This document shows positions 2,248 through 57,099 of a stretch of DNA of 64,000 nt, piece by piece. Numbering within the stretch: the first letter of the stretch is position 1; each line of letters starts with the position of its first letter. Both the position numbers and the translations under genes were made by a program. The notes beneath the pieces were generated by a model. It had not been told where the DNA came from. It did no database searches and saw nothing but the letters and a program-made list of their open reading frames with translations. The stretch is taken from contig PKTK01000001.1 of the NCBI GenBank assembly GCA_002869165.1, forward strand, positions 318,005 to 382,004. Direction: 5' to 3'. This DNA comes from Candidatus Parcubacteria bacterium. Lineage in GTDB: Bacteria > Patescibacteriota > Patescibacteriia > Patescibacteriales > UBA12075.

Positions 2248-3162
2248 ATGAATAGTGCAAAAGGGGCGGCTTTGGCTTTGGGAGGGGCCATTGTAATCAT
2301 AGGGTGGATAATTTATTATGCAGCGGATCAGTATGCTAGTGAAAATCAAGGACCAGGCTCGGGTGACGAAGTTACTGTGGAAGAGCCTACCGGTCCTGGC
2401 AGTGGTGAAGAAGTTGATCGGGGAAATGGACCAGGAGAACCGGGTCCAGGAAGTGGATAGGAAATAATCCCAGGGGACCCAGAGTACGATCCTAGTATGC
2501 AAGAGCCTACCGGTCCTGGTAGCGGAGATGAACTACCTGCTGATGAACCCACAGGTCCTGGCTCGGGAGATGAATTGCCAGCTGATGAACCAACCGGTCC
2601 TGGCTATGGAGATGAGCTACCTGCTGATGAACCCACAGGTCCTGGTTCTGGTGATGAAGTTCCAAGTGATGAACCAACTGGTCCTGGTTCTGGTGATGAA
2701 GTCTCTGCTGATGAACCAACCGGTCCTGGAAGCGGGGATGAGATACCAGCTGATGAACCAACTGGTCCCGGCTCTGGGGATGAGATACCAGCTGATGAAC
2801 CAACTGGTCCTGGTTCTGGAGATGAAATAATAGAAGAGCCGACTGGCCCAGGTTCAGGTGAAGAGGCAAAAGTTCATGCATCTTGCAATGCTATTGGTAG
2901 GGCTAGTACTTGTATTGATTATATTGGATCATTTTGGTCTTTTCTTCAAAACACTGAACTCAACTGTAATGGTGTTGGTGCTCACTCAACAGAACCTTGT
3001 CCTCAACCATCAGTTGGTGGCTGCAATGTAAGTGCTGGTACTAGTAATGAAATAGTAATATGGCATTATGACTACGGGGGAGACCCATTTACTCCAGACG
3101 TAGTTCCGTACGCTGCTATGACTTGTAATGCTAATCCAATGGCATCATGGCTGGCTAATTGA
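2248..3162 (+). pseudogene. membrane-anchored acidic repeat protein with Cys-rich C-terminal domain, one frame interrupted by in-frame TAG at 2458-2460
   Basis: ORFs 2248-2460 and 2497-3162 are in the same frame with only one stop between them. The N-terminal TM helix is in the first piece. The PGSG(D/E)E repeats run across the stop (GPGSG*EIIPGD versus later GPGSGDEIIEEP). Confidence 0.65.
2503..2874 (+). repeat. 42-bp coding tandem repeat (14-aa unit EPTGPGSGDExPAD), 7 full plus 2 variant units
   Basis: Units start at 2503, 2545, 2587, 2629, 2671, 2713 and 2755, with variant units at 2797 and 2836. More degenerate copies lie upstream from ~2343. Confidence 0.9.
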
Positions 3163-3171
3163 TACTATATA

Positions 3172-3196
3172 AAAATCGCCTTTTTATGCGATTTTT
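3172..3196 (+). terminator. rho-independent terminator, copy 2 of the conserved cassette
   Basis: AAAATCGC (3172-3179), 8-nt loop, GCGATTTT (3188-3195), followed by TGtTATAAT (3196-3204). 27 nt are identical to copy 1 (GCGATTTTTGTTATAATAAGAATAAGA). Confidence 0.75.
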
Positions 3197-3316
3197 GTTA
3201 TAATAAGAATAAGAAGATATTGATAAATAATTAAAATAATATAAAAGGAGGATTTACTTCAAAGGTCGAACTTTGATCTTTAAATGAAAAGAATTTAATA
3301 ATTAAAAAAGAAAATT

Positions 3317-4525
3317 ATGAAAAAATATTTAATCTTTTTACTAGTTTTTGCAATTTCATTTTCATTGACATCAACTATTGTGTTTGCTTATACTGCACCA
3401 AGCACAAATGATGCAAACCGAACAAATGGTTGGGCACATGTTAATGAGCTAAGTGTTAGTTCAGGCGAAATTGAATTAGAATTTGTACAACTAAGGACTA
3501 ACGTTGTTTCTTGTTTTGAATATCGAACTGATGGAGATGTCAGTCAGGTAATTGATGAAGAGCATCCACTTGAGTATTATGGAGTTGCAGATGAAAGTGA
3601 AGGTTTGCAAGAGTATCCTTATTTTTGTTTATCAAGTCCAGGAACTAGAGTTGAAACTTTTTATCCTAGTGAGTTTGTAGAAGTTAGATTGTTATTTGGT
3701 GGTGAAGGAGATGAACGTTTTGATTGGACTAAATTTGAATTGCCATTTGAAAGAAGTGCAGAAATTACAGCTCCGGCTGAAAATAGTTTGTTTTCAGGTG
3801 ATGTTGAATTTATGGCAAGTTATATTGATGAAGACGGGGATGATGGTGTTGCGTGGGCAATAAGATTCGAAACCTGTGCTCCTGATAATTCAGCTAATGT
3901 AGCGGGAAATGTTGGTAGTTTTTCAGGCGGAAACGCAACTCCTTATACATGGGATGGTGCAGATTTTTATTCACAAATCGATACTTCAGCTTGGGTTGAT
4001 GGAGATTATTGTTTTATTTTTAACCAGCAGGATGATTCTGGTGAAGAGGATTTACGAGAAACTCGTTGGTTTAGAGTTGATAACAGTGCTCCAGCTATTA
4101 CCCTTAACAATCCTGAAGATGGAACTATCTATCAAGGCATAGTTCCATTTGAAGCAGTTTGTAATGAAGATTGCGATTATATTAATTTTTGGTGGACCAA
4201 AGTAAGCGAACCTTTTGATTCAGCTGACAGGCAATATCATTATGTTCGTGAAGATGGCACCTTGTTCGAGTGGGAACTAGACACCCTAGCTCCTGAGTAT
4301 TGGAAAGATGATGTTAGATCTCAAATGGATGACGGTGATTACTATGTCTATGCTGCTGGGAAAGACTTGGCTGGTAATTGGGCTCGCTCTGAAAGAGTAA
4401 TGATCACTATAGATAACAATCCAGACACCAAGGATGAATGTAAGAAGGACGGTTGGGAAAATTATGGTTTCAAGAATCAAGGACAATGTGTGATGTTCAT
4501 TGAAACTGGTAAAGATAGTAGATAG
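3317..4525 (+). CDS. secreted acidic protein, function unknown
   Basis: 402 aa. Signal peptide (MKKYLIFLLVFAISFSLTSTIVFA), Asp/Glu-rich, C-terminal KDECKKDGWENYGFKNQGQCV motif. Confidence 0.7.
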   Translation: MKKYLIFLLVFAISFSLTSTIVFAYTAPSTNDANRTNGWAHVNELSVSSGEIELEFVQLRTNVVSCFEYRTDGDVSQVIDEEHPLEYYGVADESEGLQEYPYFCLSSPGTRVETFYPSEFVEVRLLFGGEGDERFDWTKFELPFERSAEITAPAENSLFSGDVEFMASYIDEDGDDGVAWAIRFETCAPDNSANVAGNVGSFSGGNATPYTWDGADFYSQIDTSAWVDGDYCFIFNQQDDSGEEDLRETRWFRVDNSAPAITLNNPEDGTIYQGIVPFEAVCNEDCDYINFWWTKVSEPFDSADRQYHYVREDGTLFEWELDTLAPEYWKDDVRSQMDDGDYYVYAAGKDLAGNWARSERVMITIDNNPDTKDECKKDGWENYGFKNQGQCVMFIETGKDSR

Positions 4526-4547
4526 TATATTTTCTCTATAAATAGCA

Positions 4548-4572
4548 AAAATCGCTCTTTGGGGCGATTTTT
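4548..4572 (+). terminator. rho-independent terminator, copy 3 of the conserved cassette
   Basis: AAAATCGC (4548-4555), 8-nt loop, GCGATTTT (4564-4571), followed by TGtTATAAT (4572-4580). Confidence 0.75.
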
Positions 4573-4607
4573 GTTATAATTTAAATATTTATAAATAAAT
4601 TAAATAT

Positions 4608-5609
4608 ATGGAGAATAAGGCAAAAGTGTATTTTGTAAAATTAAATGAATTAGAAAAAATAAGATCTGTTCTTCCTCAGTTCGAAGGGAAACTGGGGCTA
4701 AAGTGTCATTTTGGTGAAGAAGGCAATGATGCTTTTGTGTCAGCTGATCTTATTAAACAAATAGCCAGTATGGTTAATTATCCTCCTATGCTTGAGACTA
4801 CTGTACTTTACAGAGGTTCAAGATCAAATGCTTCAAGTCACAATGAAGTAGCACGTAAGCATGGATTTGATTTTGCCGATATTGATATTTTTGATGGTGA
4901 AGAAGGGGATAATAGTCTAGAAATCGAAATGTCTAGGGAAAATAAGAATGGTGAAGCAAAGACGTATTTTTTGGGCAAGAATCTAGAAAATTATGACTCA
5001 CTTTTAGTAATATCTCATTTCAAAGGCCATATTGCAGCTGGTTTTGGTGGTGCTATCAAGAATCTGTCTATGGGCTTGGCTGCTAGACGAGGCAAGCTTG
5101 ACATGCACGCTGGTGTAAAACATCAGGTAACAGAAAATGAATGCACGATTTGCGGAACTTGTATCAAGAATTGTCCAGTTTAGGCGATTAGTTATAATGA
5201 AAACAATAAGGCATTTATAGATCAAGAAAAATGTATTAGTTGTTCTAAATGTATTGCAGTTTGCCCAATACAGGCTATACATATTCCCTGGGGTACAACC
5301 GTAGAAGATGATTTTAAAAATAGTTTAGCCGAATATGCTCAAGCAGCAATTAAAGGTAAGAATTGTTTTTATGTTAATTTTCTTACTAATATTGTTCCAC
5401 AATGTGATTGTATGGGTATTTCACAAACTCCCATGTGTGATGATATTGGCGTGCTTATTTCTAGCGATCCCGTGGCTATAGATCAGGCATCATTTGATAT
5501 GATTACCAAACATTGCGAAGAATTCAAGCATTATAATGGCGAACAGACGCTTATTCACGGTGAAAAGATTGGTTTGGGTAGTAGAGCATATGAAATTAAA
5601 GAAATTTAA
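4608..5609 (+). pseudogene. DUF362-type Fe-S protein with inserted 2x[4Fe-4S] ferredoxin domain, interrupted by in-frame TAG at 5181-5183
   Basis: ORFs 4608-5183 and 5412-5609 share a frame, and the stretch between them is open. The read-through translation gives CTICGTCIKNCPV*AISYN...CISCSKCIAVCPIQAI, two ferredoxin cluster motifs. Confidence 0.7.
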
Positions 5610-7377: not shown

Positions 7378-10125
7378 ATGTATCAAGGAGTAAGTGAAAA
7401 CAAATATGTGATTTGCCCAGAGTGTTCAGGTACTGGCAAAAAGGGTCTTTTTCGTACTTGTCCGAATTGTTTGGGTATGGGAGTGGGAACCTTTTACCGA
7501 GATCATTTTTTTTATTGGAAACCCCAGCTCAATGTTGCTCGAATTGAACTAGATAGATTTCGTGATAAGGTAAATTTTATTATCAATATTATTGCTATCG
7601 TGGTAGCAGTGATTGGCGTTTTATGCCTGTTTGTATGGTTTTACACTGTCTCTACATTTACTATCAGGATTGAAGAGTTTGCTTTTTGGACAAAAAACCA
7701 TCCTTTATTATTCTTTTTCTGGTTAACTGTTTTTGCAGATTTTTTTATTATTTATCGTTTTAGTCGTGAAGCTATTGAAGATAAAAAAATTAAATTATTT
7801 AAATATGATACTAGAAATGTTAGACTGAAGACTTCTAATAATTGGAAAGAGCTTCGCTTGGCAAGTTCTAAGGAAAAAATCAATGTATCTGAAGCATTTT
7901 CTAAATCTTCTTTGCGCCTGATTGATGATACATATATCTTGACCACTAAGCTGAAACACAAAGACATGTCACCTATGCACCTTTTTTTCACTTGTTTGAG
8001 TGATCAGGAAGTAGTGGCTGTGCTAAGTAGACTTAATGTCAAGGCGAAGGATTTACTTGAAAGAATTAAAAGACATCTAAGTGATAGAGCCGTGCCAAGT
8101 AAGGCAACCATAGTTCCCAACGAAACCAGACAAGCTCTGATAGATGCTTATATTGATTCTTGTGAGTTGGGTCAGGAAAAAGTTACTCCCAAGAACATAT
8201 TACTTGCCTTGGTTAAATATGATAAAACAATTTTTGATATATTATCTGAAATGGAAGTAGATCCGGCTAAGATAGCTAATGTTATCCATTGGTTTTCTGT
8301 AAACGAAATTCAAATTGCTAAATACAAAAAGTTTCGCCGTTTGTCTCAGTTCAAACCAGCTTCTAATATGGATCGGGCTTATACGGCAGTAGCTACGCCA
8401 ATTTTAAATAGTTATGATTATGATTTAACAATAGCTGCTAAGTGGAGTAAGTTGGACTATTGTGTGGCTCGTGATGAGGAGATTGATGAGATTTGGGATC
8501 ACGTTGAGGGTGGTGCTAGTGGAATTTTGCTAGTTGGCGATGAAGGAGTTGGTAAAAGGACGATTATTTATGGCGTAGCCCAGAAAATGGTTGAGGAAGA
8601 TGTGCCCAATTTTTTTAAGGACAAGCGTCTTATGGAATTAGATCTTGCTAGACTTGTTAGCGGAGTGAATCCAAGTGAAGCAGAAGGTAGAATGATGTCG
8701 ATAGTTGATGAGGTTCAAGAGGCGGGAAATATTATTTTGTTTGTAAAAGATATTGAATCTATTATAGGAATATCTAGTGGTTCAGAAGGGGCTTTGGATT
8801 TGTCAGAAGTATTATCAAACGCATTATCAAGAAAACTTTTGTTTGTGTTTGCTTCTGTTGAGACTCGAAATTATCTCAAATACATGGAAGGCAAGTCGCT
8901 TGATCTGAGCTTGGAAAAGGTTGATGTGAATGAGAAGAAAGAAGATCAAGCTATACAGATAATTGCTTCCAAGATTTCGGGGATGGAGTCTAATCACGGA
9001 GTTTATTTTTCTTATAATGCAATTGATGAAGCAGTTAATTTAAGTGATAAGTATATACATGATCAGTTTTTACCTAAAAAAGCAATTAAGATACTTGATT
9101 TAGCTGCAGTTAGAGTAGCTAAGAAAAAAATGGATTTTCCATTTGTGACCAAAGATATAGTCAGGGAGATTGTTTCAGAAATTTCCAAGGTGCCCGTAAA
9201 TAAAGTGAGTCAAACAGAAGGAAAGGAATTGCTCAATTTAGAAGAGAGAATTCATGAACGAATGATCAATCAAAAAGAGGCTGTGGACATGGTGTCAGAT
9301 AGCCTAAGAAGAGCTAGGGCAGAGCTTAGAGAGGGTGTGAGACCAATAGCAAGCTTTTTATTTTTAGGACCAACTGGAGTTGGTAAAACTGAACTAGCTA
9401 AATCAGTTTCAGCAATTTATTTTGGAGACGAGAAGTATATGATTAGAGTTGATATGAGTGAGTATCAGCATGCAGATAGTGTGAAGAAAATGATTGGTGA
9501 CTCAGATAACAAAGGTTATTTAACTGAAAAAGTTAGAAAGTCGCAATTTTCATTGGTGTTACTTGATGAGATCGAAAAAGCAAATCCAGAAATACTGAAT
9601 TTATTCTTGCAAGTTATGGATGATGGTCGTTTGACTGATGGTCAAGGGCAAACAATTGATTTTACTAATACTATTATTATTGCTACTTCTAATGCGGGCT
9701 CAGATTATATTCAAGATGCAGTATTTAAGGGAGTAGAGATAGAGGAAATTCGTGATAAGTTGATAAATGAGCACATCAATCAGATAATGAGGCCAGAATT
9801 AATAAATAGGTTTGATGGAATTATTGTTTTTGAACCGCTTAGTCAAGATAATATTTTTCGAATAACCAAGTTAATGTTGGGTGGCATTGAATCAATGCTT
9901 GAGGAAAAGGGAATTGAATTTGAGATAAATGATGATGGTGTCATGAAACTGGCAAAGGAAGGCTATGATCCAAAATTTGGCGCAAGACCTTTGAGGCGTT
10001 TATTGCAAGATAAAATTGAAAACGAAATAGCTAATAAAATACTTTCTGGTGAGCTAAAGAGAAGAGATAAGGTGGTATTAACTGATGAAGCAAAAATTTT
10101 AATAGAAAAAGGAGTGAAACTTTAA
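7378..10125 (+). CDS. atypical Clp/Hsp100-family AAA+ ATPase with N-terminal zinc ribbon and transmembrane segments
   Basis: 915 aa. CPECSGTG...CPNCLGMG zinc-ribbon motif, two or three hydrophobic helices, Clp_N-like repeats. NBD1 is degenerate (GDEGVGKR, ILFVKDIE). NBD2 is canonical ([27 protein letters not shown]). Confidence 0.8.
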   Translation: MYQGVSENKYVICPECSGTGKKGLFRTCPNCLGMGVGTFYRDHFFYWKPQLNVARIELDRFRDKVNFIINIIAIVVAVIGVLCLFVWFYTVSTFTIRIEEFAFWTKNHPLLFFFWLTVFADFFIIYRFSREAIEDKKIKLFKYDTRNVRLKTSNNWKELRLASSKEKINVSEAFSKSSLRLIDDTYILTTKLKHKDMSPMHLFFTCLSDQEVVAVLSRLNVKAKDLLERIKRHLSDRAVPSKATIVPNETRQALIDAYIDSCELGQEKVTPKNILLALVKYDKTIFDILSEMEVDPAKIANVIHWFSVNEIQIAKYKKFRRLSQFKPASNMDRAYTAVATPILNSYDYDLTIAAKWSKLDYCVARDEEIDEIWDHVEGGASGILLVGDEGVGKRTIIYGVAQKMVEEDVPNFFKDKRLMELDLARLVSGVNPSEAEGRMMSIVDEVQEAGNIILFVKDIESIIGISSGSEGALDLSEVLSNALSRKLLFVFASVETRNYLKYMEGKSLDLSLEKVDVNEKKEDQAIQIIASKISGMESNHGVYFSYNAIDEAVNLSDKYIHDQFLPKKAIKILDLAAVRVAKKKMDFPFVTKDIVREIVSEISKVPVNKVSQTEGKELLNLEERIHERMINQKEAVDMVSDSLRRARAELREGVRPIASFLFLGPTGVGKTELAKSVSAIYFGDEKYMIRVDMSEYQHADSVKKMIGDSDNKGYLTEKVRKSQFSLVLLDEIEKANPEILNLFLQVMDDGRLTDGQGQTIDFTNTIIIATSNAGSDYIQDAVFKGVEIEEIRDKLINEHINQIMRPELINRFDGIIVFEPLSQDNIFRITKLMLGGIESMLEEKGIEFEINDDGVMKLAKEGYDPKFGARPLRRLLQDKIENEIANKILSGELKRRDKVVLTDEAKILIEKGVKL

Positions 10126-12247: not shown

Positions 12248-13294
12248 ATGTTAGAAATTAGTAATTATTTTAAAAAAGCAATAGAGCAAAAAGCATCAGA
12301 TTTACATTTGGTAGAGGGGAGTATCCCATCTTTGAGGGTAGCTGGAAATTTAGTAAAGGTAGATGATAAACCGATTAGGAAAGGTGAGTTAAAGGAGGGG
12401 GTTTTTAAATATTTAGATAACCATGAACAAGAGAGGTTCGAGAGAAAAAGAGATATAGATGTTTCTTTAACTTTTTTTGAAATCTCTTTTCGTGTGAATA
12501 TTCATTATCAAGAAGGACGGGTTGGTTTAGCAGCTAGGTTGGTTCCGGATAAAGTACCAAGTCCGCAGGAAATTAATCTTGATGAAATGTTGTACAAGTT
12601 AACCCATTTACGAGATGGGTTAATACTGGTTACTGGTCCAGCTGGCGTAGGCAAATCAACAACTTTAGCGGTGATGCTTGATATCATCAATCAAGAAAGA
12701 GCATCTCATATTATTACTATTGAAGATCCGATTGAATACACTTTTCAAGATAAAAAATCAATTGTAGAGCAAAGGCAACTTGGACGAGATACTCACAGCT
12801 TCTCTTCTGCGTTGAAATATGTTTTGAGACAGGATCCGAATGTGATTATGGTGGGAGAGATGAGAGATGCTGAAACAGTGGCTGCAGTACTAAATGCTGC
12901 CAAAACTGGCCATTTGGTCCTATCCACCTTGCATACTAGCACGGCTGCTGAAACAATTGAACGTATTATTGATTTTTATCCAGCAGAGTATCAATCTATG
13001 ATTGCTCATCAGTTAGCATCATTATTAAGAGCTGTTGTATCACAGCAGTTGTTACCTAAGATTGGTGGAGGACAGGTTTGCGCAAGAGAGATATTGATTA
13101 ATAACAATGCAATTGCCAATATTATCCGAAGCATGCAAATGGAACAGATAAATTCCTTTATGCAGACAAGTAAATCACAAGGCATGATTACTATGAATAA
13201 ATATGTTGAATTTTTATATAGAAAAGGGATTATTTCTAAAGAGACTTATGATAATAGAAAAAGGGACATAGATAATAAAAGTGTTTACTATTAA
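12248..13294 (+). CDS. pilT: type IV pilus retraction ATPase PilT, paralog 1
   Basis: 348 aa. Walker A GPAGVGKSTT, ITIEDPIEY, RQDPNVIMVGEMRD, GHLVLSTLHT. Confidence 0.85.
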   Translation: MLEISNYFKKAIEQKASDLHLVEGSIPSLRVAGNLVKVDDKPIRKGELKEGVFKYLDNHEQERFERKRDIDVSLTFFEISFRVNIHYQEGRVGLAARLVPDKVPSPQEINLDEMLYKLTHLRDGLILVTGPAGVGKSTTLAVMLDIINQERASHIITIEDPIEYTFQDKKSIVEQRQLGRDTHSFSSALKYVLRQDPNVIMVGEMRDAETVAAVLNAAKTGHLVLSTLHTSTAAETIERIIDFYPAEYQSMIAHQLASLLRAVVSQQLLPKIGGGQVCAREILINNNAIANIIRSMQMEQINSFMQTSKSQGMITMNKYVEFLYRKGIISKETYDNRKRDIDNKSVYY

Positions 13295-13308
13295 AATATT
13301 TTAAAAAT

Positions 13309-14352
13309 ATGAATTTATCTTATTATTTTAAAAAAGCAATTGAACGAAATGCTTCTGATCTTCATTTGATAGAGGGTTCTATACCAGCAATACGTGTTAG
13401 TGGTAAGCTAATCCATTTGACCAAAGAAAAAATTCCTATTGGAGAATTAAAGTTTTCAATTTTTTCCTTGCTTGATAAAGATGTAAGGGAGAGGTTTTTG
13501 CGAAAAAAAGATATTGATATCTCAGCTGAGTTTTTTAATCATCGGTTTAGGGTAAACATTCATTATCAAGAGGGCAAGATTGGTTTGGCGGCTAGATTGA
13601 TCGTAAAAGATATTCCCAAACCTGAAGATATTGGTCTCAATGAAACTCTCTACAACATGACTCATTTGAATGATGGTTTGATACTTGTTACTGGGCCTTG
13701 TGGAGTTGGTAAGTCTACTACCTTGGCGGTGATGTTGAATATAATTAACCAAGAAAGAGCTTCTCATATTATTACAATCGAAGATCCAATTGAATATGCT
13801 TTTGAGGATAAAAAGTCCATTATTGAGCAAAGGCAGTTGGGACGAGATACAAATAGTTTTGCTTCAGCCTTGAAATATGCGCTTAGACAAGATCCAAATG
13901 TTATAATGGTAGGCGAGATGCGTGATCTAGAAACAGTTTCAGCCGTACTTACAGCTGCCAAGACTGGCCATTTGGTTTTATCAACTCTTCATACTAGTTC
14001 AGCAGCCGAGACAGTTGAACGTATAGTTGATTATTATCCAACTCAGTATCAGTCTCAAGTGGCGCACCAGTTATCTTCTGTACTTAGATCTGTGATTGGG
14101 CAACAACTTCTGCCAACCAAGGATGGAAAATTGGTGGCAGCCAGAGAAATAATGATAAATGATAATGCTATCGCCAACATGATTCGCACAGGTCAAATTG
14201 AGCAAATAGACTCAGCAATTCAGACAAGCTCTGATGTAGGAATGATAACTATGAATAATTCCATAAGAGAATTATATCGTTCTGGTATTATTTCTAAGGA
14301 AACAATGGAAAACAGAACAAGAGATTTGGAAACTGGATCAATAATGTATTAA
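13309..14352 (+). CDS. pilT: type IV pilus retraction ATPase PilT, paralog 2
   Basis: 347 aa. Colinear with and largely identical to the upstream copy (GPCGVGKSTT, ITIEDPIEY, GHLVLSTLHT). Confidence 0.85.
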   Translation: MNLSYYFKKAIERNASDLHLIEGSIPAIRVSGKLIHLTKEKIPIGELKFSIFSLLDKDVRERFLRKKDIDISAEFFNHRFRVNIHYQEGKIGLAARLIVKDIPKPEDIGLNETLYNMTHLNDGLILVTGPCGVGKSTTLAVMLNIINQERASHIITIEDPIEYAFEDKKSIIEQRQLGRDTNSFASALKYALRQDPNVIMVGEMRDLETVSAVLTAAKTGHLVLSTLHTSSAAETVERIVDYYPTQYQSQVAHQLSSVLRSVIGQQLLPTKDGKLVAAREIMINDNAIANMIRTGQIEQIDSAIQTSSDVGMITMNNSIRELYRSGIISKETMENRTRDLETGSIMY

Positions 14353-14703: not shown

Positions 14704-15141
14704 ATGAGGGCGGTTATACAAAGAGTTGAAAAAGCGAATGTTAAAGTGGGTGAAAATATTGTTGCTGAGATAGGCCATGGATTTTTAGTATTGCTTGCAA
14801 TTCACAAAGAGGACAAAGAAGATTCTATCAAAAAATTAGCAGATAAGATTATTAAATTAAGGGTATTTGAAGATAAAGAGGGAAAAATGAATAAATCATT
14901 GGAAGATAAAAATGGTTCAGTGCTAGTAGTGTAACAATTTACTCTCTATGGTGATACATCCAGGGGTAGAAGGCCGAGTTTTATTGAATCGGCAAGACCG
15001 GAAATGGCTAGGGATTACTACGAAAAATTTTGCAAGTATTTAAAGGAAAAGGGAATAAATACTCAAAATGGAATTTTTCAAGAGTCAATGAAAGTAAGTT
15101 TAACAAACGATGGCCCTACTACAATAATAATAGATATATAA
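14704..15141 (+). pseudogene. dtd: D-aminoacyl-tRNA deacylase (Dtd), interrupted by in-frame TAA at 14932-14934
   Basis: MRAVIQRV...GSVLVV*QFTLYGDTSRGRRPSF...SLTNDGPTTIIIDI is colinear with Dtd. The stop sits where the Ser of the SQFTL motif belongs. Confidence 0.8.
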
Positions 15142-17192
15142 TGAGAAGATCTTTAAGTAAAAATTTAGTATTTAGTATTTTAACAGTTTTTTTGCTGTCT
15201 TCTTGTAGTATAGAAATTAAACCACCAGAGTTAAACAATGATGATGTATTTGAAACACCTATTTTAGAAACAAAGAATGAAAAAGACATTGTTTTTCAGG
15301 ATGAAAAAGAATTTGTGAAGAATCAAGAAAAAATGAACAGTTTTGAGTCTTATGAGGAATTAAAATCATTTTTGGCCAAGCAGGAGTTGGATAAAGTAAA
15401 TATTAGTTATGATTATAATTATTCGAGTGAGAAAGACATTTATAATTATAATTCTGAGGGGGTGCAAATTGATGACGAGAATATTATTAAAGGTTTGGGA
15501 GTAAATGATGTATATATTATAAAAAGTGATAATGAGTATCTATACGTTCTAAGTCAGAATAAAATATATTTAATTAGGGCCTATCCTGCTGAAGAAGCAA
15601 GTATATTGTCAATTATTGATTTGAAAAATGCACCAATTGGATTCTTTGTATATGAAAACAAACTATTAGTTTTTGGCGAAAGTTTTGATTTTTATAATGA
15701 AAATAAACATCTTTTTAAAAGAAATAGTACTTATTCATATTTGAAGATTTTTGATGTAAGTAATAGAGCCAATCCTCTTGAAGACAAACAAATTGACTAC
15801 GAAGGTAAGTATTTAGATTCAAGAATTTCTAACGGAAAGTATTATTTGGAATCAGTTATTTATGATTACACTTATTATCAGACAGAAGAAGTTCTACCAC
15901 GTTATTTTGTTAATAATGAGGAGTATGCAGAATGTGGTGATGAAGAATGCTCGAGTGAAGCAGTTCATTATTTTGAGCTTCCTTATGACAAAATTGATTT
16001 TTTTAGCTTATATACTATAGATTTGTCAGGTGTTAATAAAATTATAGATAGAGAACATTTTTTACTTTCGGATAATTTTAGTACTTTCTTTTCAGATTCT
16101 AATTTTTATATCGCATATAATAAAAATTTAGATCAGAGTCAATTAGAAATTGAAGTTATGAATAAACTTTTACTGACTGATTTAAGCGAAGTTGCAGCAA
16201 AAAAAGTCAAGGAAATTTATAGAGTAAAAGATTACGTTTTAAATAAATACGAAAAAGAAGAAAAAATAAAAAATATTTTTAATGATTATATATTTTCTTT
16301 GAGCATGGAAGAACAAATTGCAATTTATTCAGAAATAGAAACAGAATTGGCAAGTCGTCTTGCTAAAATTAAAGAAGATTTAGATACTTCGGTAATACAT
16401 AAATGCAGTTTAGGCGCCAAAGGTCTTGAGTATATAAGTACAGCTGTTATTCCTGGTGAATTTGTAGGAGCACCAACAACCAGTGAAATTAGTGGAGTTT
16501 TATACACTATTACTTATGATTTAGAAAATTCTAATTATACTATTTTAGCTTTGGACAAAAACTTTAAAGAATTAAATCGAGTAGAAGGTTTGTATTCTGG
16601 TGAAACTATTAGCTTAGTTAGTTTCATGCAGAATAAGATGTTTGTTAAACTTGAATCAAAGCCTAGTTCATTATATGTAATTGATTTAAATCTAGCTAAT
16701 GAAATGAAAGATCTGGGAGAAATAACATATTTTTCTCAACTTGAATATTTACACCCTTATGACAATAATATTTTAATCGGTGTTAACAGGGGAGGAGCCA
16801 CTGGAGAGGGCATTAATATTTATTTATATGATGTTACAGATGTAGTTAGTCCTAAATTGATTGATAGTTTTACTATGGGAGGTGCTGGAAGTAATTCACT
16901 TTTAATGTCTAATCCAAGATCATTTTATTTTTCTCGTCCCAAGAATTTAGTATTTTTTCCAGTTGAGATCAGAAATTCTAGTGATGATCTATTTCCTGAA
17001 GCAAATTATACAGGGGCGGTGGTATTAAATACTAGCAGATCAGGTTTTAGCTTAAAGGGAGTAATTGATCATTCTGGATCAACAATAAAAAGAGGCATTT
17101 TTGCAAACAACACACTTTATAGTTTTTCAGATCAGGGCATAAAGGTAAATTCACTAAGCAGTTTAAATGAGTTAAGTTTTATAAAATATTAA
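15141..17192 (+). CDS. beta-propeller-domain lipoprotein
   Basis: The likely start is ATG 15141 (TAATG overlap with dtd), giving MRRSLSKNLVFSILTVFLLSSC, a lipobox-like signal. The body resembles the secreted beta-propeller domain family. The track start at 15030 would overlap dtd. Confidence 0.65.
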   Translation: MRRSLSKNLVFSILTVFLLSSCSIEIKPPELNNDDVFETPILETKNEKDIVFQDEKEFVKNQEKMNSFESYEELKSFLAKQELDKVNISYDYNYSSEKDIYNYNSEGVQIDDENIIKGLGVNDVYIIKSDNEYLYVLSQNKIYLIRAYPAEEASILSIIDLKNAPIGFFVYENKLLVFGESFDFYNENKHLFKRNSTYSYLKIFDVSNRANPLEDKQIDYEGKYLDSRISNGKYYLESVIYDYTYYQTEEVLPRYFVNNEEYAECGDEECSSEAVHYFELPYDKIDFFSLYTIDLSGVNKIIDREHFLLSDNFSTFFSDSNFYIAYNKNLDQSQLEIEVMNKLLLTDLSEVAAKKVKEIYRVKDYVLNKYEKEEKIKNIFNDYIFSLSMEEQIAIYSEIETELASRLAKIKEDLDTSVIHKCSLGAKGLEYISTAVIPGEFVGAPTTSEISGVLYTITYDLENSNYTILALDKNFKELNRVEGLYSGETISLVSFMQNKMFVKLESKPSSLYVIDLNLANEMKDLGEITYFSQLEYLHPYDNNILIGVNRGGATGEGINIYLYDVTDVVSPKLIDSFTMGGAGSNSLLMSNPRSFYFSRPKNLVFFPVEIRNSSDDLFPEANYTGAVVLNTSRSGFSLKGVIDHSGSTIKRGIFANNTLYSFSDQGIKVNSLSSLNELSFIKY

Positions 17193-17201
17193 AAAAAATA
17201 T

Positions 17202-17801
17202 ATGTTGAAAAAATCTATTTTTTTGTATTTAAGTTTTTTTACGATTACTTTGTTTGTTCTTATGGTGGTTTTAGTAAGTGTTTCTATAGTAAGAGCAAGC
17301 AATTATAAAGTTTTTTCAAGTTTTCAGGATTATCAAAAAATGATAAAGACAAATGAGGCTAACGCTAAAGACCTCGTTAAAATAAGAACTGATAAGGAAA
17401 AGTATCTGAAAAATGAAAATGTAAATATTAATTTTGAATATCAGGGATATGCCAAGGCGATCAAAGAAGGGAAATCTCAAATTTCCGTAAAGGCAAGAAA
17501 AGATATCGGAAATAATTTTTCAGTTGCCTTTATTGAATATGAATCAAGTGACGGCTGGATTGCTATTGAGCCAGTCTTGCGTTGTTCGAATGAATGTATG
17601 GAGGCATGCGATAAGAGCCAACTATTGGAAGCTGGTAAAAAAATGAATTTTCTCTGGAATAAAAAGATTTTAAAATGTAGCATTGCAGGAGAGGAAGAAG
17701 AGAATGCTCCTTTGGGAAGATATAGAATTGTTGCATCGGTTTGGGATGAAAGTAGCAATAAAAATGTAAGAATATATTCGAATGAATTTAATTTACAATA
17801 A
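17202..17801 (+). CDS. membrane-anchored protein, function unknown
   Basis: 199 aa with one N-terminal TM helix. Confidence 0.55.
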   Translation: MLKKSIFLYLSFFTITLFVLMVVLVSVSIVRASNYKVFSSFQDYQKMIKTNEANAKDLVKIRTDKEKYLKNENVNINFEYQGYAKAIKEGKSQISVKARKDIGNNFSVAFIEYESSDGWIAIEPVLRCSNECMEACDKSQLLEAGKKMNFLWNKKILKCSIAGEEEENAPLGRYRIVASVWDESSNKNVRIYSNEFNLQ

Positions 17802-17819
17802 TATACAAAAAAGTTTTAT

Positions 17820-18314: not shown

Positions 18315-18316
18315 TT

Positions 18317-38319: not shown

Positions 38320-38363
38320 ATCCTTGTGTATCTTTAAAGATATCTTTAAAGATACACAAGGAT
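38320..38363. repeat. 44-bp perfect, spacerless palindrome
   Basis: ATCCTTGTGTATCTTTAAAGAT|ATCTTTAAAGATACACAAGGAT. It contains two tandem copies of the 12-bp palindrome ATCTTTAAAGAT. Confidence 0.95.
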
Positions 38364-38470
38364 GGATTATATTATTTTGCTTGCAATTATTCTTATTGTT
38401 AACAACAAGTAATTCGTCATTTTAAATTAAAAATAATAAATTAGTCCCCTCTTCAAAAAAAATAAAAATA

Positions 38471-42491: not shown

Positions 42492-43976
42492 CTATTTGCT
42501 AGCCTCTTTTATTCTATTAATGCTTTTATTTTTACCTAAAATTTCGGCTATCTCGAAAGGTCCAGGACTGTTTTTTCTAGCACACAGAGATACTCTCATT
42601 GGCCAAAGATATTCGCCAATTTTATATTCATTGGTTTTTAGATATTCAATAATTGTTGTTTCCAAGTGTTCTTTATTCCAGTCGTTTTCACTAATTTTTT
42701 CTAATACTACAATAAGCTTTTTAAGGTTTACTTGCGCATCATCTTTAGTTATTTTTTTCCAAGCAAGCATTTCTTTATCAAGCTCAAGTTTATCTAAAAA
42801 GAAGAATTCAGTCATCTCCCCTATTTCGGATAGTTTTTTCATTCTTTCTTTTTCTACTCTTACTACTTTGAGAAGAAAGTTTTTATCAAAATTCTTAATG
42901 TTGATATTTTTTTCTTCTAAATATGTTTTTAGATATGGTAAACAATTTTTAAGCAAGTCGTCGTCATTTAGGGCTTTGATGTAATGCGCGTTAAAAAAGT
43001 CCAATTTATCTTGATCAAAAACAGCTGGTGAGGTATTTATTTTTTTGTAGTCAAATATTTGAGTGACTTCATCTAAACTTAAGATCTCAACATTTTTGTC
43101 ATTTTTTTTATCTTTGTCGTATGGAGACCAGCCAAGTAGAACATTAAAGTTAATGAGGGCTTGTCTTAGATACCCTTTATTTTTAAAGTCTTCCACTGTT
43201 ACATCTCCTTGGCGTTTGCTTAATTTTCCTCCACCTTTGTTTAGTACAACTGGTAAATGAATAAATTTTGGTATTTCCCAGTTAAAAGCTTTGTATAATA
43301 AAACGTTTTTAGGAAAACTTGGTATCCATTCTTCTGCCCTGGTAACATGAGAGATTTCCATTAAATGATCATCTACTACTGAAGCAAATTGATACGTAGG
43401 AATGCCATTTGATTTGATTAGCACATGATCTTCAAGTTCAGCTGCTTTGAATATGATATCACCACGTAATTCATCATGAACTTTTATTTCTCCTTCAAGA
43501 GGCATTTTTTGTCTAATGGTATATTTTTCGCCTGCTTGAATTCGTTTTTCTACTTTTTCCCTACTTAAGCCCCTGCAAGCTCTGTCGTATCTAGGTGGTA
43601 ATTTGTCTTTTTGTTGAGCTTCTCTTAATTCAGTTAAGCGTTCCGCTGAACAGAAACAGTGGTAAGCTTCACCTTTCTCTAATAATTTTTTGATATATTT
43701 GTCATAAATATCTTGTCTTTCGCTTTGAATATATGGGCCATAGTCTCCTCCAATTTCTGGGCCTTCATCATATTTAATACCAAGCCAATTCAAGATTTCG
43801 ATTAATTTTTCAACTGAGCCCTTGACGTATCTTTTTTGGTCAGTATCCTCAATACGTAACAAAAAATCACCATCTTGACTCTTGGAAATCAAATAAGCGA
43901 AAAGAATAGTTCTCAGACTACCAATATGCAAGTATCCGGTTGGTGATGGAGCAAATCTAGTTCTAACTTTTTTCAT
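42492..43976 (-). CDS. gltX: glutamyl-tRNA synthetase
   Basis: RFAPSPTGYLHIGSLRT (HIGH) and KLSKR (KMSKS), 494 aa. Confidence 0.95.
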   Translation of the reverse strand: MKKVRTRFAPSPTGYLHIGSLRTILFAYLISKSQDGDFLLRIEDTDQKRYVKGSVEKLIEILNWLGIKYDEGPEIGGDYGPYIQSERQDIYDKYIKKLLEKGEAYHCFCSAERLTELREAQQKDKLPPRYDRACRGLSREKVEKRIQAGEKYTIRQKMPLEGEIKVHDELRGDIIFKAAELEDHVLIKSNGIPTYQFASVVDDHLMEISHVTRAEEWIPSFPKNVLLYKAFNWEIPKFIHLPVVLNKGGGKLSKRQGDVTVEDFKNKGYLRQALINFNVLLGWSPYDKDKKNDKNVEILSLDEVTQIFDYKKINTSPAVFDQDKLDFFNAHYIKALNDDDLLKNCLPYLKTYLEEKNINIKNFDKNFLLKVVRVEKERMKKLSEIGEMTEFFFLDKLELDKEMLAWKKITKDDAQVNLKKLIVVLEKISENDWNKEHLETTIIEYLKTNEYKIGEYLWPMRVSLCARKNSPGPFEIAEILGKNKSINRIKEASK

Positions 43977-45183
43977 ATTTTTGTATTGTTTTGTGTAGTT
44001 TTTTAATGTATTTAATAAATGATTCTTGCCTAACTTCTTCTATAATTGTTTTGGCTTCATCTAATGTAAACCATTTCCATTCAATATATTCCCATTCCCT
44101 AATTTTTAAATCAGAATCATCGCCAGTGTATTTTGTTATAGCAAGTGATTGACTTTGACCTTTGTAGTTTCTGTATTGATGATTTTCTTTTTTGGGAAAA
44201 GTGTATTTATGTAAGTTTTTATAAGTGTCTAAAATTTTTATTTTTTTGGTTCCAAGTTCTTCTTGAATTTCTCTAATAGCGGCTGATTCAATCGAATCGC
44301 CATCTATTCCTCCCTGAGGAATTTGCCATGCCCCATTATCATTTCTTTTTATTAAAAGAATTTTATATTGTTTTGCTTCGTCAATTTTATATATCAGACA
44401 GGCGACATTTTTTCTGTATTGAAATTGGTTTATTAATAACCATTTTAAATATTCATATGGAAATAAAAAAATAGCATTAATAATTCTTTTGGTTCTTATT
44501 AATTTTTTATCGCCATAACTTTTAATATTTATTAAACGCCAGAGCCACTCTAAACCAATAAGTTTTAAAATTGCAGGACTTGGTTTGACTTTAGCACTGA
44601 TATAATCAAAACTTCCTCCGACTCCAATAGCAAGTTTTACAAACGGCATTTTAGGTAGATTTTTGTAGATAAATTTTTCTTGGTAAGGGCTGCCAGTAGT
44701 AATAAAGATTATTTCAGGTTTAAAAACATTTATGTTTTGGTAATAAGCCAATGACCATTCTTTATCTATTGATTCGATAGCGAAATTTAGATCTGGATAT
44801 TTTTTCTTGAGCGCCCAGTTAATATCATTTCCGCTTGAAAGTCCGTTTTTCAAGTTGAAAATAGCAACTTTCTTAGCTTCTGTTTCAGCGTATTTTAGTA
44901 GCCAAAGACAAATATCAGAGCCAGCCCAGCGGACAAGATTTTTCCCTTGAAGCCAAGAAGCAAACTTGATACCTATACCATCAGGAATAGACAAAGTAGC
45001 AGAATTTATAATATGGTGCAATTTTTCATCATGGTTTGCATTTAAGACTATTTCAGGATTTGGGGTTACGATATAAGACTGCTTTTCTCCTGCGAGTATG
45101 TCGATTATTTTATTTTGAAAAACTTTTTTATTTGCTCTGTCAAAAGAAATCCCTAAAACATTAATTTTATCAAAATATTCCAT
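43963..45183 (-). CDS. fusion of WecG/TagA/CpsF-family (GT26) glycosyltransferase and NUDIX hydrolase
   Basis: The N-terminal ~245 aa match GT26 (VTPNPEIV, SIPDGIGI, LAIGVGGSFD). The C-terminal part has the NUDIX box GGIDGDSIESAAIREIQEELG. The stop overlaps the gltX start by 14 nt. Confidence 0.75.
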   Translation of the reverse strand: MEYFDKINVLGISFDRANKKVFQNKIIDILAGEKQSYIVTPNPEIVLNANHDEKLHHIINSATLSIPDGIGIKFASWLQGKNLVRWAGSDICLWLLKYAETEAKKVAIFNLKNGLSSGNDINWALKKKYPDLNFAIESIDKEWSLAYYQNINVFKPEIIFITTGSPYQEKFIYKNLPKMPFVKLAIGVGGSFDYISAKVKPSPAILKLIGLEWLWRLINIKSYGDKKLIRTKRIINAIFLFPYEYLKWLLINQFQYRKNVACLIYKIDEAKQYKILLIKRNDNGAWQIPQGGIDGDSIESAAIREIQEELGTKKIKILDTYKNLHKYTFPKKENHQYRNYKGQSQSLAITKYTGDDSDLKIREWEYIEWKWFTLDEAKTIIEEVRQESFIKYIKKLHKTIQKYEKS

Positions 45184-46571: not shown

Positions 46572-49199
46572 ATGTTTAATAAATTTACAAATAAATCACA
46601 AGAAGTGATCATAAACGCACAAGTAATAGCGCAAGATAATGGTCAACAGCAAATAGAGTCTTTACATATTTTGGCTGCACTATTAACTCAATCTGAGAGT
46701 TTGGTAAAACCAATTTTAGAGAAACTGGAAGTTGAACCAGAATATGTTGAAGATTTAGTTTTTGACAAAATTGAAGCTTTGCCAAAGACTGTAGCTACGG
46801 CTAATGCTGGTACTGTTCAGGGTACTGCTGAAGTAGCAATGGTACTTGAAAAGGCTAAAAAAGAAGCTGACCAGATGGGAGATGAATTTATTTCTACTGA
46901 ACATATCTTCTTGTCGCTTATAAGTGTAAAGTCAGAAGCACAAAAGATTTTACTCGGACTAAAAATTGAGTACAATACAGTAATGAAGATTTTGTCAGAA
47001 CTTAGGGGTTCACAAAAAGTCGACTCCCCTGACCCAGAAACAAAATATAAAGTCTTGGAAAAATATGCAACTAATTTAACTGATATGGCTAGAAAAAAGA
47101 AACTTGATCCAGTAATTGGCAGAGATGAAGAGATAAGACGTATTATGCAAGTTCTTTCTAGAAGAACCAAGAATAACCCTGTTTTAATAGGAGAAGCTGG
47201 AACTGGTAAAACTGCTATAATTGAAGGTTTGGCCCAGAGAATAATTTCTGGAGATGTTCCAGAGACCCTCAAAAACAAAGAACTTTTAAGTCTTGATCTA
47301 GGAGCTTTGGTTGCGGGAGCGAAATTTCGTGGTGAGTTTGAAGATCGACTAAAAGCAGTTCTAAAAGAAATTAAATCCCAAGAAGGTAAAATAATACTTT
47401 TTATTGATGAGCTTCATACTATCGTTGGAGCTGGAGCTTCGGAAGGTTCTATGGATGCTTCCAATATGCTTAAGCCGGCTTTGGCTCGTGGTGAACTTCG
47501 AAGTATTGGAGCTACCACAACCAAAGAATATCAAAAATATATTGAAAAAGACGCAGCTCTTGAGCGAAGATTTCAGCCAATTTTTGTTTCTGAACCAAGC
47601 ATAGAAGATACAATCGCCATACTACGTGGCATCAAAGAAAAGTATGAAGTTCACCATGGTGTCAGAATAACTGATGATGCTTTGATTGCTTCGGCTAAAT
47701 TATCTGCTAGATATATTAGTGATAGATTTTTGCCCGATAAAGCGGTTGATTTGATGGATGAAGCAACCTCTGGTCTTCGTATGGAGATTGATTCTATGCC
47801 GGAAGATATTGATAAATTAAAAAGAGATATTAAAAGATTAGAGATTGAAAAGGCAGGACTTAAAAAAGACAAAAAAGGAGCTTCAAAACTAAGAGGAATC
47901 AATAAAAAATTAACTGAACTCAAAGAAGAAGCTAATCAACTGGAGTTACACTGGAATAATGAAAAGAATATTATTGCTAAGATTAGTGAAACTAAAAAAG
48001 AAATAGATAAACTAAAAGCTGAAGCTGAGATAATTGAAAGAAAAGGTGATGATCTAACTCGAGTTGCTGAGATTCGTTATTCAATGATTCCTGAGTATGA
48101 GAAAAAAGTTCAGAAGTTTGAAGAAGAATTAAATAGTATTCAAAAGAAAGGTCAAAGAATCTTAAAAGAAGAGATAGATGAAGAAGATATTGCCAAAGTT
48201 GTTTCTCGTTGGACTGGTATACCAGTATCCAAAATGCTTGAGTCAGAGATTCAAAAATTAGCCAAAGCAGAAGTTGAACTGGAGAAACGTGTCAGAGGGC
48301 AAGAATCAGCTATCAAAGCAGTTGCCAATGCTATCAGACGTTCTCGAGCAGGAATTTCTGAAGAAAAAAAGCCAATTGGTTCATTCTTGTTTGTTGGTCC
48401 AACAGGAGTTGGCAAGACTGAATTAGCCAAAACTTTAGCTGAATTTATGTTTAATGACGAAGCATCTTTAATTAGATTAGATATGTCGGAATTTATGGAG
48501 AAGCACTCAGTGGCTAAAATTATTGGTTCCCCTCCTGGTTATATTGGACATGACGAAGGTGGTCAATTGACCGAACAAGTCAGACGAAGGCCTTATTCAG
48601 TGATATTGTTTGATGAGATTGAAAAAGCTCACCCAGAAGTTTTTAATATATTGTTGCAAATTCTTGATGATGGTAGATTATCTGATTCTAAGGGACGAGA
48701 AGTAAACTTTAAAAATACTATTATTATCATGACATCGAATCTTGGTAATGAGGTTATCAAGCATTATTCTATTGGTTTTTCTGACGGTTCTGATAAACAA
48801 AATGAAATCAAACATCGTGAAAATGAAATGAAAGAAAAAATCGAGAATATTTTAAAAGATCATTTTAAGTTAGAATTTTTGAATAGAATTGATGAAACAG
48901 TGATCTTTAAAAGCCTTGATAAGTTAGCTCTTTCTGAAATTGTTGATTTAGAACTTGCTAAAGTAGAAAAACGTTTGTTGGATAAAAATATTAAGATTAG
49001 AATTGCCGCTAAAGTTAAAAAACATTTAGCTGAAAAAGGCTTTGATATCACCTTTGGAGCTAGGCCACTTAAACGTATTATTCAGAACACAATTTTAGAC
49101 GAATTGGCATTAGATATAATTGAAGGTAAAGTTAAGGAAGGTGATAACATAACTATTGATCTCGGAGTTAATCATAAATTGATGTTGAAAGTTAAGTAG
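46572..49199 (+). CDS. clpB: chaperone ClpB (Hsp100 disaggregase)
   Basis: 875 aa. Clp_N, NBD1 ([16 protein letters not shown]), long coiled-coil M-domain, NBD2 ([20 protein letters not shown]). Confidence 0.95.
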
Positions 49200-55085: not shown

Positions 55086-55206
55086 GTGATATTTAGGTAG
55101 GATAGATCACCTTGTGATTATGCTTGGGAATAGAAAAATCCAAATATATGAGACCAATTTCATAAAGTAAAAACTAGTTATTTTGAGGGTGTGAGGCTTC
55201 CGCCTC

Positions 55207-55232
55207 TTCGATTCCCCTAGGGGTCACAAATA
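55207..55232 (+). repeat. 26-bp direct repeat of the tRNA-Glu 3' end (att-like)
   Basis: TTCGATTCCCCTAGGGGTCACAAATA at 55027-55052 (T-loop through 6 nt past the tRNA) is repeated exactly at 55207-55232. The upstream part of the tRNA is not repeated. Confidence 0.9.
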
Positions 55233-55280
55233 TGAATGGACTGCGGATGCTGTTTGTTTTTTTTGTGCAGTTAGTAAAAT

Positions 55281-55303
55281 AAAAACAGCTACTTAGTAGC
55301 TGT
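55281..55303 (-). terminator. terminator of the minus-strand gene 55313-55729
   Basis: ACAGCTA-CTTAG-TAGCTGT, with a T-run on the minus strand. Confidence 0.6.
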
Positions 55304-55312
55304 TGTAAATTT

Positions 55313-55729
55313 TTATTTGTTTGAGTTCCATTCCACATCCTTTTTTGTGGGCTTAGCCAATTTGGACACTATCTGACTTTCAAGATATTCCCAGATAATA
55401 ATACCTTTTATAGGTTTGTGGGTTTTGGATACGCTTTTTTGTTCTAGTGAGGTGATACTTTTAGTTTGAAGGTCTAGGTGAAAATTTTGAAAGAATAAAT
55501 CATCTTCAAGAACAATTGATTCAATAATCAAAGATCTTTTATTATTTGGAATGATTTTTAGCACTTTCCCTTTGTTAGCAATAAATTCTAAAATGTACTT
55601 AATCAAGATATCAATGATGCTTGTTTCAGCGTGTATGTTTTTTAAGGTTATGCCAATAATTTCAGCTCTTTTTCTAGTAATATTTTTTGTTTCTATTTCA
55701 AATACAGTGTGATTTTTTTTATTAGCCAT
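55313..55729 (-). CDS. hypothetical protein
   Basis: 138 aa. Strong SD (AAAGGAGGAAT). No family recognised. Confidence 0.55.
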   Translation of the reverse strand: MANKKNHTVFEIETKNITRKRAEIIGITLKNIHAETSIIDILIKYILEFIANKGKVLKIIPNNKRSLIIESIVLEDDLFFQNFHLDLQTKSITSLEQKSVSKTHKPIKGIIIWEYLESQIVSKLAKPTKKDVEWNSNK

Positions 55730-55854
55730 AATTCCTCCTTTTTTTAAATGATCGTTCTACAAATTTTAGAAAAAGATATCTATTTTGTCAATTGACTATT
55801 GATAATAATAATGATATTTTTATTATAATTTCGTAGTTCTTTATACTAATACAA

Positions 55855-57099
55855 ATGGAAGTAGAAAAAGTGGAAAGTGATTACAGGTTTCATTTAAAAG
55901 ATGCAATTTTGGGAATGCAGATGTTATTTGTTGCTTTTGGAGCCTTAGTTTTGGTGCCTTTGATAGTTGGCCTTAATTCAAGCGTGGCATTATTCACAGC
56001 TGGAATAGGTACTTTAATTTTTCAAGTATGCACTAAAGGAAAGGTGCCAATATTTTTGGCATCAAGTTTTGCATTTATCGCGCCAATGATATACGGTATT
56101 CAAAACTGGGGAATTCCAGCAACGATGTGCGGGTTAATGGCAGCAGGTTTTCTGTATATTATATTAAGCTTACTTATCATGTATTTTGGCGTAGGTTTTG
56201 TTCACAAAATTTTTCCACCAATAGTTACAGGTCCGGTACTTATGACTATTGGGCTGTTACTGGTTAGTGTGGGAGTTAATATGGCTATAGGAAAAACAGG
56301 AGACGGCGCAGCTGTCTTAGTACCCTACCCTACAGCTATAAGTGTTTCAATGATTACCTTGATTGTGGCTATTTTTGTGGCTGTGTCCAGAAATAAGTTT
56401 CTAAGCTTAATACCGATATTTTCTGCAATTATCGCGGGCTATATTGTTTCAGTATTTTTTGGTTTAATTGATTTTTCAAAAGTAGTTTCTGTTCCATGAA
56501 TTCAAATTCCGGCCTTTACATTACCAGAGTTTAATTGGCAGGCAATTTTGTTTATTGCTCCAGTTGCTATTGCTCCAGCAATTGAGCATTTTGGTGATGT
56601 AATTGCAATAGGTTCAGTAACTAAAAAGGATTATCTTACTGACCCCGGAATAGACAAAACATTGCTTGGTGATGGGATTGCAACTATGGTAGCTTCTTTT
56701 CTTGGTGGGCCACCAAATACAACTTATTAAGAGGTCACAGGAGCAGTGGCTTTAACAAAAGCTGTTAATCCTGCAATTATGACCTGGGCAGCAATATGTG
56801 CAATACTTTTCGCTTTTGTTGGAAAATTGAACGCTGTTTTGGCGACAATCCCGGTTCCAGTTATGGGAGGCATAATGATTCTTTTATTCGGAATCATAGC
56901 ATCGGTAGGAATAGGAAATATTGTTCGAGGCAAGGTAGATATGTCAAAACCAAGAAATATGGTAATAGCTGCTGTACCTCTTGGTTTCGGTATAGGTGGA
57001 ATGATATTCCAGGCTGGAAGTTTTAAATTAGGAGGGATTGCCCTGGCAGGAATTTCAGCAGTAATTTTGAATTTAATTCTTCCAAACAATAAAGAGTAA
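55855..57099 (+). pseudogene. NCS2-family uracil/xanthine permease, interrupted by in-frame TGA (56497-56499) and TAA (56728-56730)
   Basis: Three track ORFs (55855-56499, 56548-56730, 56746-57099) share one frame and together give a colinear ~414-aa permease (...AIEHFGD...GGPPNTTY*EVTGAVALT...PVPVMGGIMILLFG...). Confidence 0.8.

Follow-up and report, generated by a model that had tools for sequence, protein, structure and literature searches.

We analysed a 64,000-nucleotide stretch of DNA (the window) from a Candidatus Parcubacteria bacterium (contig PKTK01000001.1, positions 318,005 to 382,004), in which seven otherwise intact genes are interrupted by eight in-frame stop codons. It is highly probable that seven of these stops are consensus errors of one genome record, of the type produced by 8-oxoguanine (8-oxoG), and that the eighth, a TGA at 56497-56499 in a uracil/xanthine permease gene, is a real nonsense codon. 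The seven false stops all belong to a set of 39 G:C>T:A transversions by which the window differs from other assemblies of the same organism, whereas TGA 56497-56499 is different in kind, being a G>A transition. Neither fact was visible to the preliminary description of this DNA, which had been made from the sequence alone and which had listed three candidate explanations (artefact, mutation burst, read-through) and chosen none. Artefact now best accounts for seven of the eight stops, and read-through is not needed.

In-frame stop codons and their counterparts in other assemblies

The record is a GenBank metagenome-assembled genome (MAG) of a Parcubacteria/Falkowbacteria-like bacterium, in which the window corresponds to proteins PLX27900-PLX27957 (locus tags C0583_015xx) on a 584,723-bp contig. 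Translation through each site confirmed the position and frame of all eight stops. In each affected gene the flanking pieces lie in one frame and are separated by a single stop, or by two in the permease. No frameshift had been reported, and none was found: the other assemblies of the organism align to positions 1-64000 without gaps, showing no indel in the window and supporting the earlier view that ordinary decay, with its indels, is unlikely. When the stop was masked as X, Pfam domains bridged the break in six of the affected genes, in line with the observation that family motifs continue past the stops. The affected genes are seven of about 62, which together occupy 90% of the window; the previous estimate of about one gene in nine was therefore correct.

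For comparison we used ENA ERZ794999 NODE_4 (500,921 bp, coverage 22.95), JGI 3300007102 Ga0102541_1231305 (369,492 bp) and Logan SRR5894289. These contigs jointly span the whole window at 99.91-99.97% identity. The ENA and Logan sequences are identical across a 37-kb overlap and are probably assemblies of one and the same run. Six of the eight stops are replaced by a sense codon in each other assembly covering the site (in site order GAG, GAG, TCA, GAA, GAG and TCA), and seven are absent from at least one other assembly. The preliminary description had proposed that sense codons in sister genomes would point to an assembly artefact. Such codons were found for seven stops (for dtd in ENA only); TGA 56497-56499, in contrast, is common to all four assemblies. 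The residues inferred at the eight sites by comparison with the sister assemblies are, in site order, E, E, S, S, E, E, W and S, and every stop is one substitution away from the sense codon so assigned, in agreement with what had been deduced from the window alone.

Six of the stops are specific to the window record. TAG 2458-2460 interrupts the gene of a PGSGDE-repeat protein (2248-3162, plus strand) through a T at base 2458, where ENA and JGI have G (GAG, Glu) and an intact gene of 304 aa; the stop falls on a repeat position normally occupied by D or E. This gene matched no Pfam family. The encoded protein is secreted or membrane-anchored; a tandem array of about ten repeats of 14 residues (EPTGPGSGDE-x-PAD) precedes a C-terminal domain rich in Cys. 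In the DUF362/4Fe-4S ferredoxin gene (4608-5609, plus strand), TAG 5181-5183 is due to a T at base 5181; ENA, JGI and Logan have G (GAG, Glu), and the DUF362 protein is called there at 333 aa. TAA 26469-26471 lies just 5' of the TRAM domain of miaB (25398-26678, plus strand; UPF0004, Radical_SAM and TRAM domains), with A at base 26470 against C in ENA, JGI and Logan (TCA, Ser), where MiaB is called at 413 aa. The Peptidase_S51 gene (38471-39037, plus strand) carries TAA 38699-38701, base 38699 being T against G in ENA and JGI (GAA, Glu), where the gene is called at 188 aa. On the minus strand, TAG 41789-41791 interrupts a coiled-coil Peptidase_M23 gene (41204-42436); the plus-strand base 41791 is A against C in ENA, JGI and Logan (GAG, Glu), and the gene is called there at 410 aa. 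The sixth, TAA 56728-56730, lies in the permease gene (55855-57099, plus strand; Xan_ur_permease) downstream of TGA 56497-56499. Base 56729 is A against C in ENA, JGI and Logan (TCA), and the affected codon is the Ser of the NTTYSE motif, which is Ser in 120 of 120 permease homologues.

The stop in dtd (14704-15141, plus strand; Tyr_Deacylase) is common to the NCBI and JGI assemblies only. TAA 14932-14934 replaces the Ser of the SQFTL motif, a residue that is Ser in five of five Falkowbacteria-like relatives; base 14933 is A in the window and in JGI, and C in ENA (TCA, Ser). Accordingly, dtd is called at 145 aa in ENA and at 76 aa in JGI. We also considered a motif common to the surroundings of the stops, as in methylation-linked errors; none was seen and this candidate was rejected.

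When ten window proteins were looked up by exact match, the truncated forms of MiaB and DUF362 turned up in NCBI sources only, and the proteins without false stops were found also in JGI, Logan and ENA sources. The 915-aa ClpB of the window gave no exact database match, because of two missense changes private to the window copy. A search of species-representative genomes yielded only distant relatives (MAGs of Falkowbacteria and other Patescibacteria, at most 57% protein identity), and these supplied outgroups for dtd, ClpB and a glycosyltransferase-4 (GT4) protein but no sister genome. The alleles not found in the window agree with conserved residues of distant homologues (the Ser of SQFTL, the Ser of NTTYSE, ClpB Pro723, GT4 Gly265 and Asp125 of a beta-propeller protein). 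This indicates that the window alleles are the derived ones.

A single substitution class in a context suggestive of guanine oxidation

Forty-one differences are specific to the window, of which 39 are G:C>T:A transversions (21 G>T and 18 C>A on the plus strand), a class that makes up just 10.9% of all possible substitutions in the window. These changes span 1240-58932 (positions 1240, 2305, 2458, 2606, 3187, 4026, 4844, 4892, 5181, 8417, 9545, 10943, 14377, 14933, 15513, 20075, 21715, 23496, 24871, 25764, 26383, 26470, 28913, 35071, 38699, 38941, 40335, 41791, 44137, 44426, 45249, 46797, 47808, 50635, 52475, 52586, 52844, 56729 and 58932), at a density of about 0.6 per kb relative to the other assemblies of the same population. 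Thirty-six of them are absent from every other assembly with coverage, and the remaining three are common to JGI only and absent from ENA. The two differences of another class are 15471 T>G and a synonymous G>A at 55860; among the 41 there was no C>T, no other transition and no indel. Cytosine-deamination damage of the ancient-DNA or APOBEC type is ruled out by the lack of C>T and the single G>A. The change at 15471 is the sole window-specific A:T>C:G change and a single event; it converts a TAT Tyr codon into a GAT Asp codon in the beta-propeller protein. A:T>C:G is the class that arises from incorporation of 8-oxo-dGTP.

The distribution of the G:C>T:A changes along the window revealed no clustering, their positions fitting a uniform distribution (Kolmogorov-Smirnov p = 0.31). 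No genome-strand asymmetry was seen either (21 of 39 are G>T, for a G share of 0.59; p = 0.52). Event pairs at most 300 bp apart were of the same strand type in eight of nine cases (permutation p = 0.018, with a threshold picked post hoc). This would fit an origin from single damaged fragments or strands, although the result is suggestive only.

The sequence context of the changes was strongly biased. With all changes written as C>A, the mutated C was preceded on its 5' side by C in 20 cases, T in 17, A in one and G in one, for background shares of 0.196, 0.342, 0.262 and 0.201, respectively. A 5' pyrimidine was thus present in 37 of 39 events (p = 1.7e-8), and the AC and GC contexts were depleted about 8- to 10-fold. 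Read on the guanine strand, the changes affect the 5'-G of GG (2.6-fold enriched) or GA (1.3-fold) and hardly ever that of GT or GC. The order GG > GA >> GT, GC is that of guanine oxidation potential. Both the restriction of the spectrum to G>T/C>A and the bias towards the 5'-G in GG and GA point towards oxidised guanine (8-oxoG) as the source of the changes.

To obtain an expectation for the coding effects, the 39 sites were restored and every possible G:C>T:A change in the window was enumerated. Nonsense changes make up 11.9% of the possible changes (4.65 expected among 39, seven observed), missense changes 71.9% (28.05 expected, 27 observed), synonymous changes 8.1% (3.17 expected, three observed) and intergenic changes 8.0% (3.11 expected, two observed). 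The observed classes do not differ from those of random G:C>T:A changes (chi-square p = 0.65). Under a dN/dS of 0.1 and no nonsense changes, in contrast, three or fewer synonymous changes among 37 coding ones would have a p of 9e-9. The changes therefore fall on coding sequence as though without selection. Several missense changes affect invariant or near-invariant residues: Pro723>Gln lies in the second AAA module of ClpB, at a site that is Pro in 16 of 16 relatives, and Gly265>Val and Asp125>Tyr were found in the GT4 and beta-propeller proteins, respectively. Stops arise 2.4 times as frequently from G:C>T:A changes as from substitutions overall (11.9% against 4.9%). In coding sequence as rich in AT as this, about 12% of the possible G:C>T:A changes make stops, and 39 changes are thus expected to yield about five false ones. 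The combination of many stops with no frameshift is thus explained by a class of change that is prone to make stops and yields no indels.

The same class of change was found in a sibling assembly. JGI differs from ENA and Logan solely by G>T/C>A changes, eight inside the window and two upstream of it. Within the window, five are private to JGI (9451, 10766, 15086, 40872 and 41635) and three, which are consecutive, are common to JGI and the NCBI record (10943, 14377 and 14933). One of the upstream changes, about 4.2 kb before window position 1, is a G>T at position 2438 of the retrieved JGI piece; it replaces GGA by TGA in codon 211 of a gene for 285 aa that is intact in ENA, indicating that false stops of this origin are not limited to the NCBI record. 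The NCBI and JGI variant sets thus overlap only in part, with three of the 39 NCBI changes in common. This partial overlap is not explained by a mix of a clean strain and one mutant strain. It is explained by a read pool with widespread G>T noise, of which each assembler fixed a different subset.

Low-coverage contigs of the project also contain deviant bases. A contig of ENA ERZ794998 with 3x coverage showed 10 substitutions relative to the window in 4.1 kb, every one a transversion. Of these, three are window-specific G:C>T:A changes; at the other seven sites ERZ794998 also departs from ERZ794999, and A/C and T/G types are included. The seven sites lie at 21809-22171 and at 24412 of the window, and three A/C differences are spaced exactly 21 bp apart (22129, 22150 and 22171), in the region encoding the LepA C-terminus. 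Further low-coverage ENA contigs show private amino-acid changes of their own.

Origin of the changes and rival explanations

The following course of events is the most probable. Template DNA that had suffered oxidative damage, in at least one of the submitters' libraries, would have been copied during amplification, the polymerase pairing 8-oxoG with A so that G came to be read as T. The errors may then have entered the consensus at places of low effective unique depth. From what appears to be the same read pool, the JGI assembly would have taken up a smaller and partly overlapping set of errors. An artefact of this kind is known from Illumina libraries. C>A/G>T artefacts arising from 8-oxoG formed during sample preparation were described with a preceding-C context, strongest at CCG (Costello et al. 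2013, PMC3616734). The present changes share with that case the restriction to C>A/G>T, the preference for C before the mutated C, the lack of the changes from independent data on the same DNA source and the blindness to coding effect. The artefact is catalogued in COSMIC as artefact signature SBS45.

Several points weigh against this explanation. The published artefacts lie at low allele fraction (Costello et al. 2013, PMC3616734), whereas the changes described here have become the assembled consensus; for this, either the effective depth or the library complexity must have been low, or amplification must have passed through a bottleneck. Artefacts present in a low fraction of reads should not normally win the consensus of a 585-kb contig at about 23x, and this is the weak point of the explanation. 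The CCG>CAG peak of Costello et al. was not specifically found (one observed against 0.66 expected), possibly since CCG is rare at 32% GC and the sites are few. Lastly, 10943, 14377 and 14933 are present in both the NCBI and JGI assemblies, and the variant alleles must therefore have been frequent in some set of reads common to both. These three changes would also be explained by a real variant sub-population.

Such a sub-population might be a hypermutated sub-lineage, that is, a clone exposed to oxidants and/or deprived of the 8-oxoguanine (GO) repair enzymes MutM and MutY and passed through severe bottlenecks, in which case the NCBI MAG would be true and the JGI co-assembly a partial mixture. 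We consider this unlikely. The spectrum, restricted to G:C>T:A as in mutM and mutY mutators, is indeed that of MutY/MutM deficiency, and the three consecutive variants present in two assemblies suggest alleles that were substantial in some read set. A dN/dS close to 1 occurs in mutation-accumulation lines as well, and none of the seven nonsense changes lies in an aminoacyl-tRNA synthetase gene. However, GO-system mutators carry one heritable haplotype under some selection, whereas the sets found here overlap partly and the load is seemingly unselected. No single haplotype carries all variants: JGI has three of the 39 together with its five private changes in the window, and these private G:C>T:A changes are not explained by a single variant clone. 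Extrapolation gives about 350 mutations per 0.58-Mb genome and about 11% of genes with a nonsense codon, which is implausible for a population that assembles into a 585-kb contig, as are the radical changes at invariant residues (ClpB P723Q, GT4 G265V). With only one G>A and one T>G besides, and no indels, the mutator episode would have to be extreme and very recent, and it left no replication-strand asymmetry. Slightly less probable still is a burst of guanine oxidation in vivo, in an episymbiont of the candidate phyla radiation (CPR) with minimal DNA repair, for instance in an oxidant-producing enrichment culture with transfer bottlenecks. If this were true, cells with about 11% of their genes bearing nonsense codons would have persisted temporarily, perhaps buffered by the host or by co-infecting intact genomes.

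A technical artefact without guanine oxidation has, in our view, the same small chance as the in vivo burst. The errors would then stem from cross-talk between the G and T channels, from an error-correction or polishing step, or from a low-coverage sample merged into the MAG. The 3x contig of ERZ794998 does show that low depth in this project leaks errors into the consensus, and the private amino-acid changes of the other low-coverage ENA contigs go in the same direction. However, cross-talk predicts A:T>C:G changes about as frequent as G:C>T:A changes, and the window has one against 39. The hierarchy of contexts is moreover a property of guanine oxidation, and is not known as a behaviour of base-callers or polishers.

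It is very improbable that the stops are decoded by suppression, read-through or an altered code and that the genes are functional as written. The reading frames 3' of the stops are intact and conserved, as this explanation would have it. However, other assemblies of the organism have sense codons at seven of the eight sites, and recoding and read-through are thereby excluded for these seven. TAA stands for Ser, Ser, Ser and Glu, hence for no single residue, and all three stop codons also end normal genes of the window (TAA 46, TAG 11 and TGA five), as the preliminary description had noted. TGG occurs 184 times against one in-frame TGA. No suppressor tRNA was found within the window, whose sole tRNA is a tRNA-Glu(CUC), and a search against Rfam gave no match in the window besides this tRNA. 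Stop usage and tRNA content thus support the earlier opinion that a code change is unlikely. UGA is read as Gly in Gracilibacteria and Absconditabacteria (code 25) and as Trp under code 4. As in such cases, the window belongs to a small, AT-rich CPR genome and has a TGA in frame where Trp is expected, but this TGA occurs once, TGA ends five genes, and the TAA and TAG codons also involved are assembly-specific. Code 4, code 25, selenocysteine and pyrrolysine were all ruled out by stop usage and by the residues at the sites.

The permease lesion, neighbouring features and meaning of the record

TGA 56497-56499 is present in all assemblies, and it is therefore a real, population-wide nonsense codon. 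The permease is called in two pieces of 214 and 183 aa in ENA, JGI and Logan. The site is Trp in 116 of 120 homologues, and the lesion is a TGG>TGA transition. Apart from the artefact stop, the permease departs at 10 positions from 157 near-invariant columns, and about half of these departures are also found in its closest homologue, a JGI protein of 70% identity. The next homologues, at 62-66% identity, are from Desulfobacterota (Desulfovibrio, Desulfonauticus and others) and not from CPR bacteria, which suggests that the gene was probably acquired horizontally. The simplest reading is that the permease is a recent pseudogene resulting from an ordinary nonsense mutation. As a population-wide nonsense codon in an accessory transporter, this TGA resembles the pseudogenes of reduced or symbiont genomes; the remaining seven stops do not, being absent from the ENA/Logan consensus and accompanied by no indels. 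Among the stop codons, UGA is the one that tRNA-Trp misreads most easily. Occasional read-through of this kind would restore the native residue of the permease, and of that gene alone.

A few features of the window and its surroundings were recorded in passing, the analysis having covered about 85 kb of the roughly 585-kb genome. A near-perfect 58-bp palindrome (38313-38370), whose 33-nt arms are 94% complementary, is situated about 100 bp upstream of the S51 gene, in a 784-bp intergenic region of 26% GC (37687-38470) with a second hairpin close by. The region of the palindrome folds better than shuffled controls (z = -5.2) and gave no Rfam match. The next gene downstream of the S51 gene (39115-40080) encodes an XerC/D-like tyrosine recombinase. 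Two genes for ClpB-like AAA+ chaperones (7378-10125 and 46572-49199) are present within 40 kb of this genome of about 0.58 Mb. Pfam domains revealed two unusual fusions: an Asp/Asn-type tRNA synthetase with a C-terminal HD domain (30648-32777, 709 aa) and a WecG glycosyltransferase with a NUDIX domain (43963-45183, 406 aa). About 1.7-3.4 kb past the window end, the ENA contig contains genes with [NiFe]-hydrogenase large-subunit (NiFeSe_Hases) and small-subunit (Oxidored_q6) domains (12427-14187 of the retrieved ENA piece) and, near them, a large serine recombinase gene (16776-18560 of that piece).

The eight stops are a data-quality artefact of one public record together with one ordinary nonsense mutation, and no biological phenomenon. 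A nearly complete CPR genome thus stands in GenBank with substitution errors, all of one class, at about 0.06% of its positions. About one gene in nine is falsely truncated as a result, and protein databases now list the fragments like any other protein: the 357-aa MiaB PLX27925.1 (25398-26471) and the 191-aa DUF362 protein PLX27905.1 (4608-5183) are each the representative of their 90%-identity cluster. Similar cases may be spotted by their signature, namely differences between assemblies that are G:C>T:A only, a dN/dS near 1 and no indels. The real lesion of the permease is unremarkable. Gene loss, pseudogene load, relaxed selection or recoding inferred for CPR bacteria from this record would be misleading.

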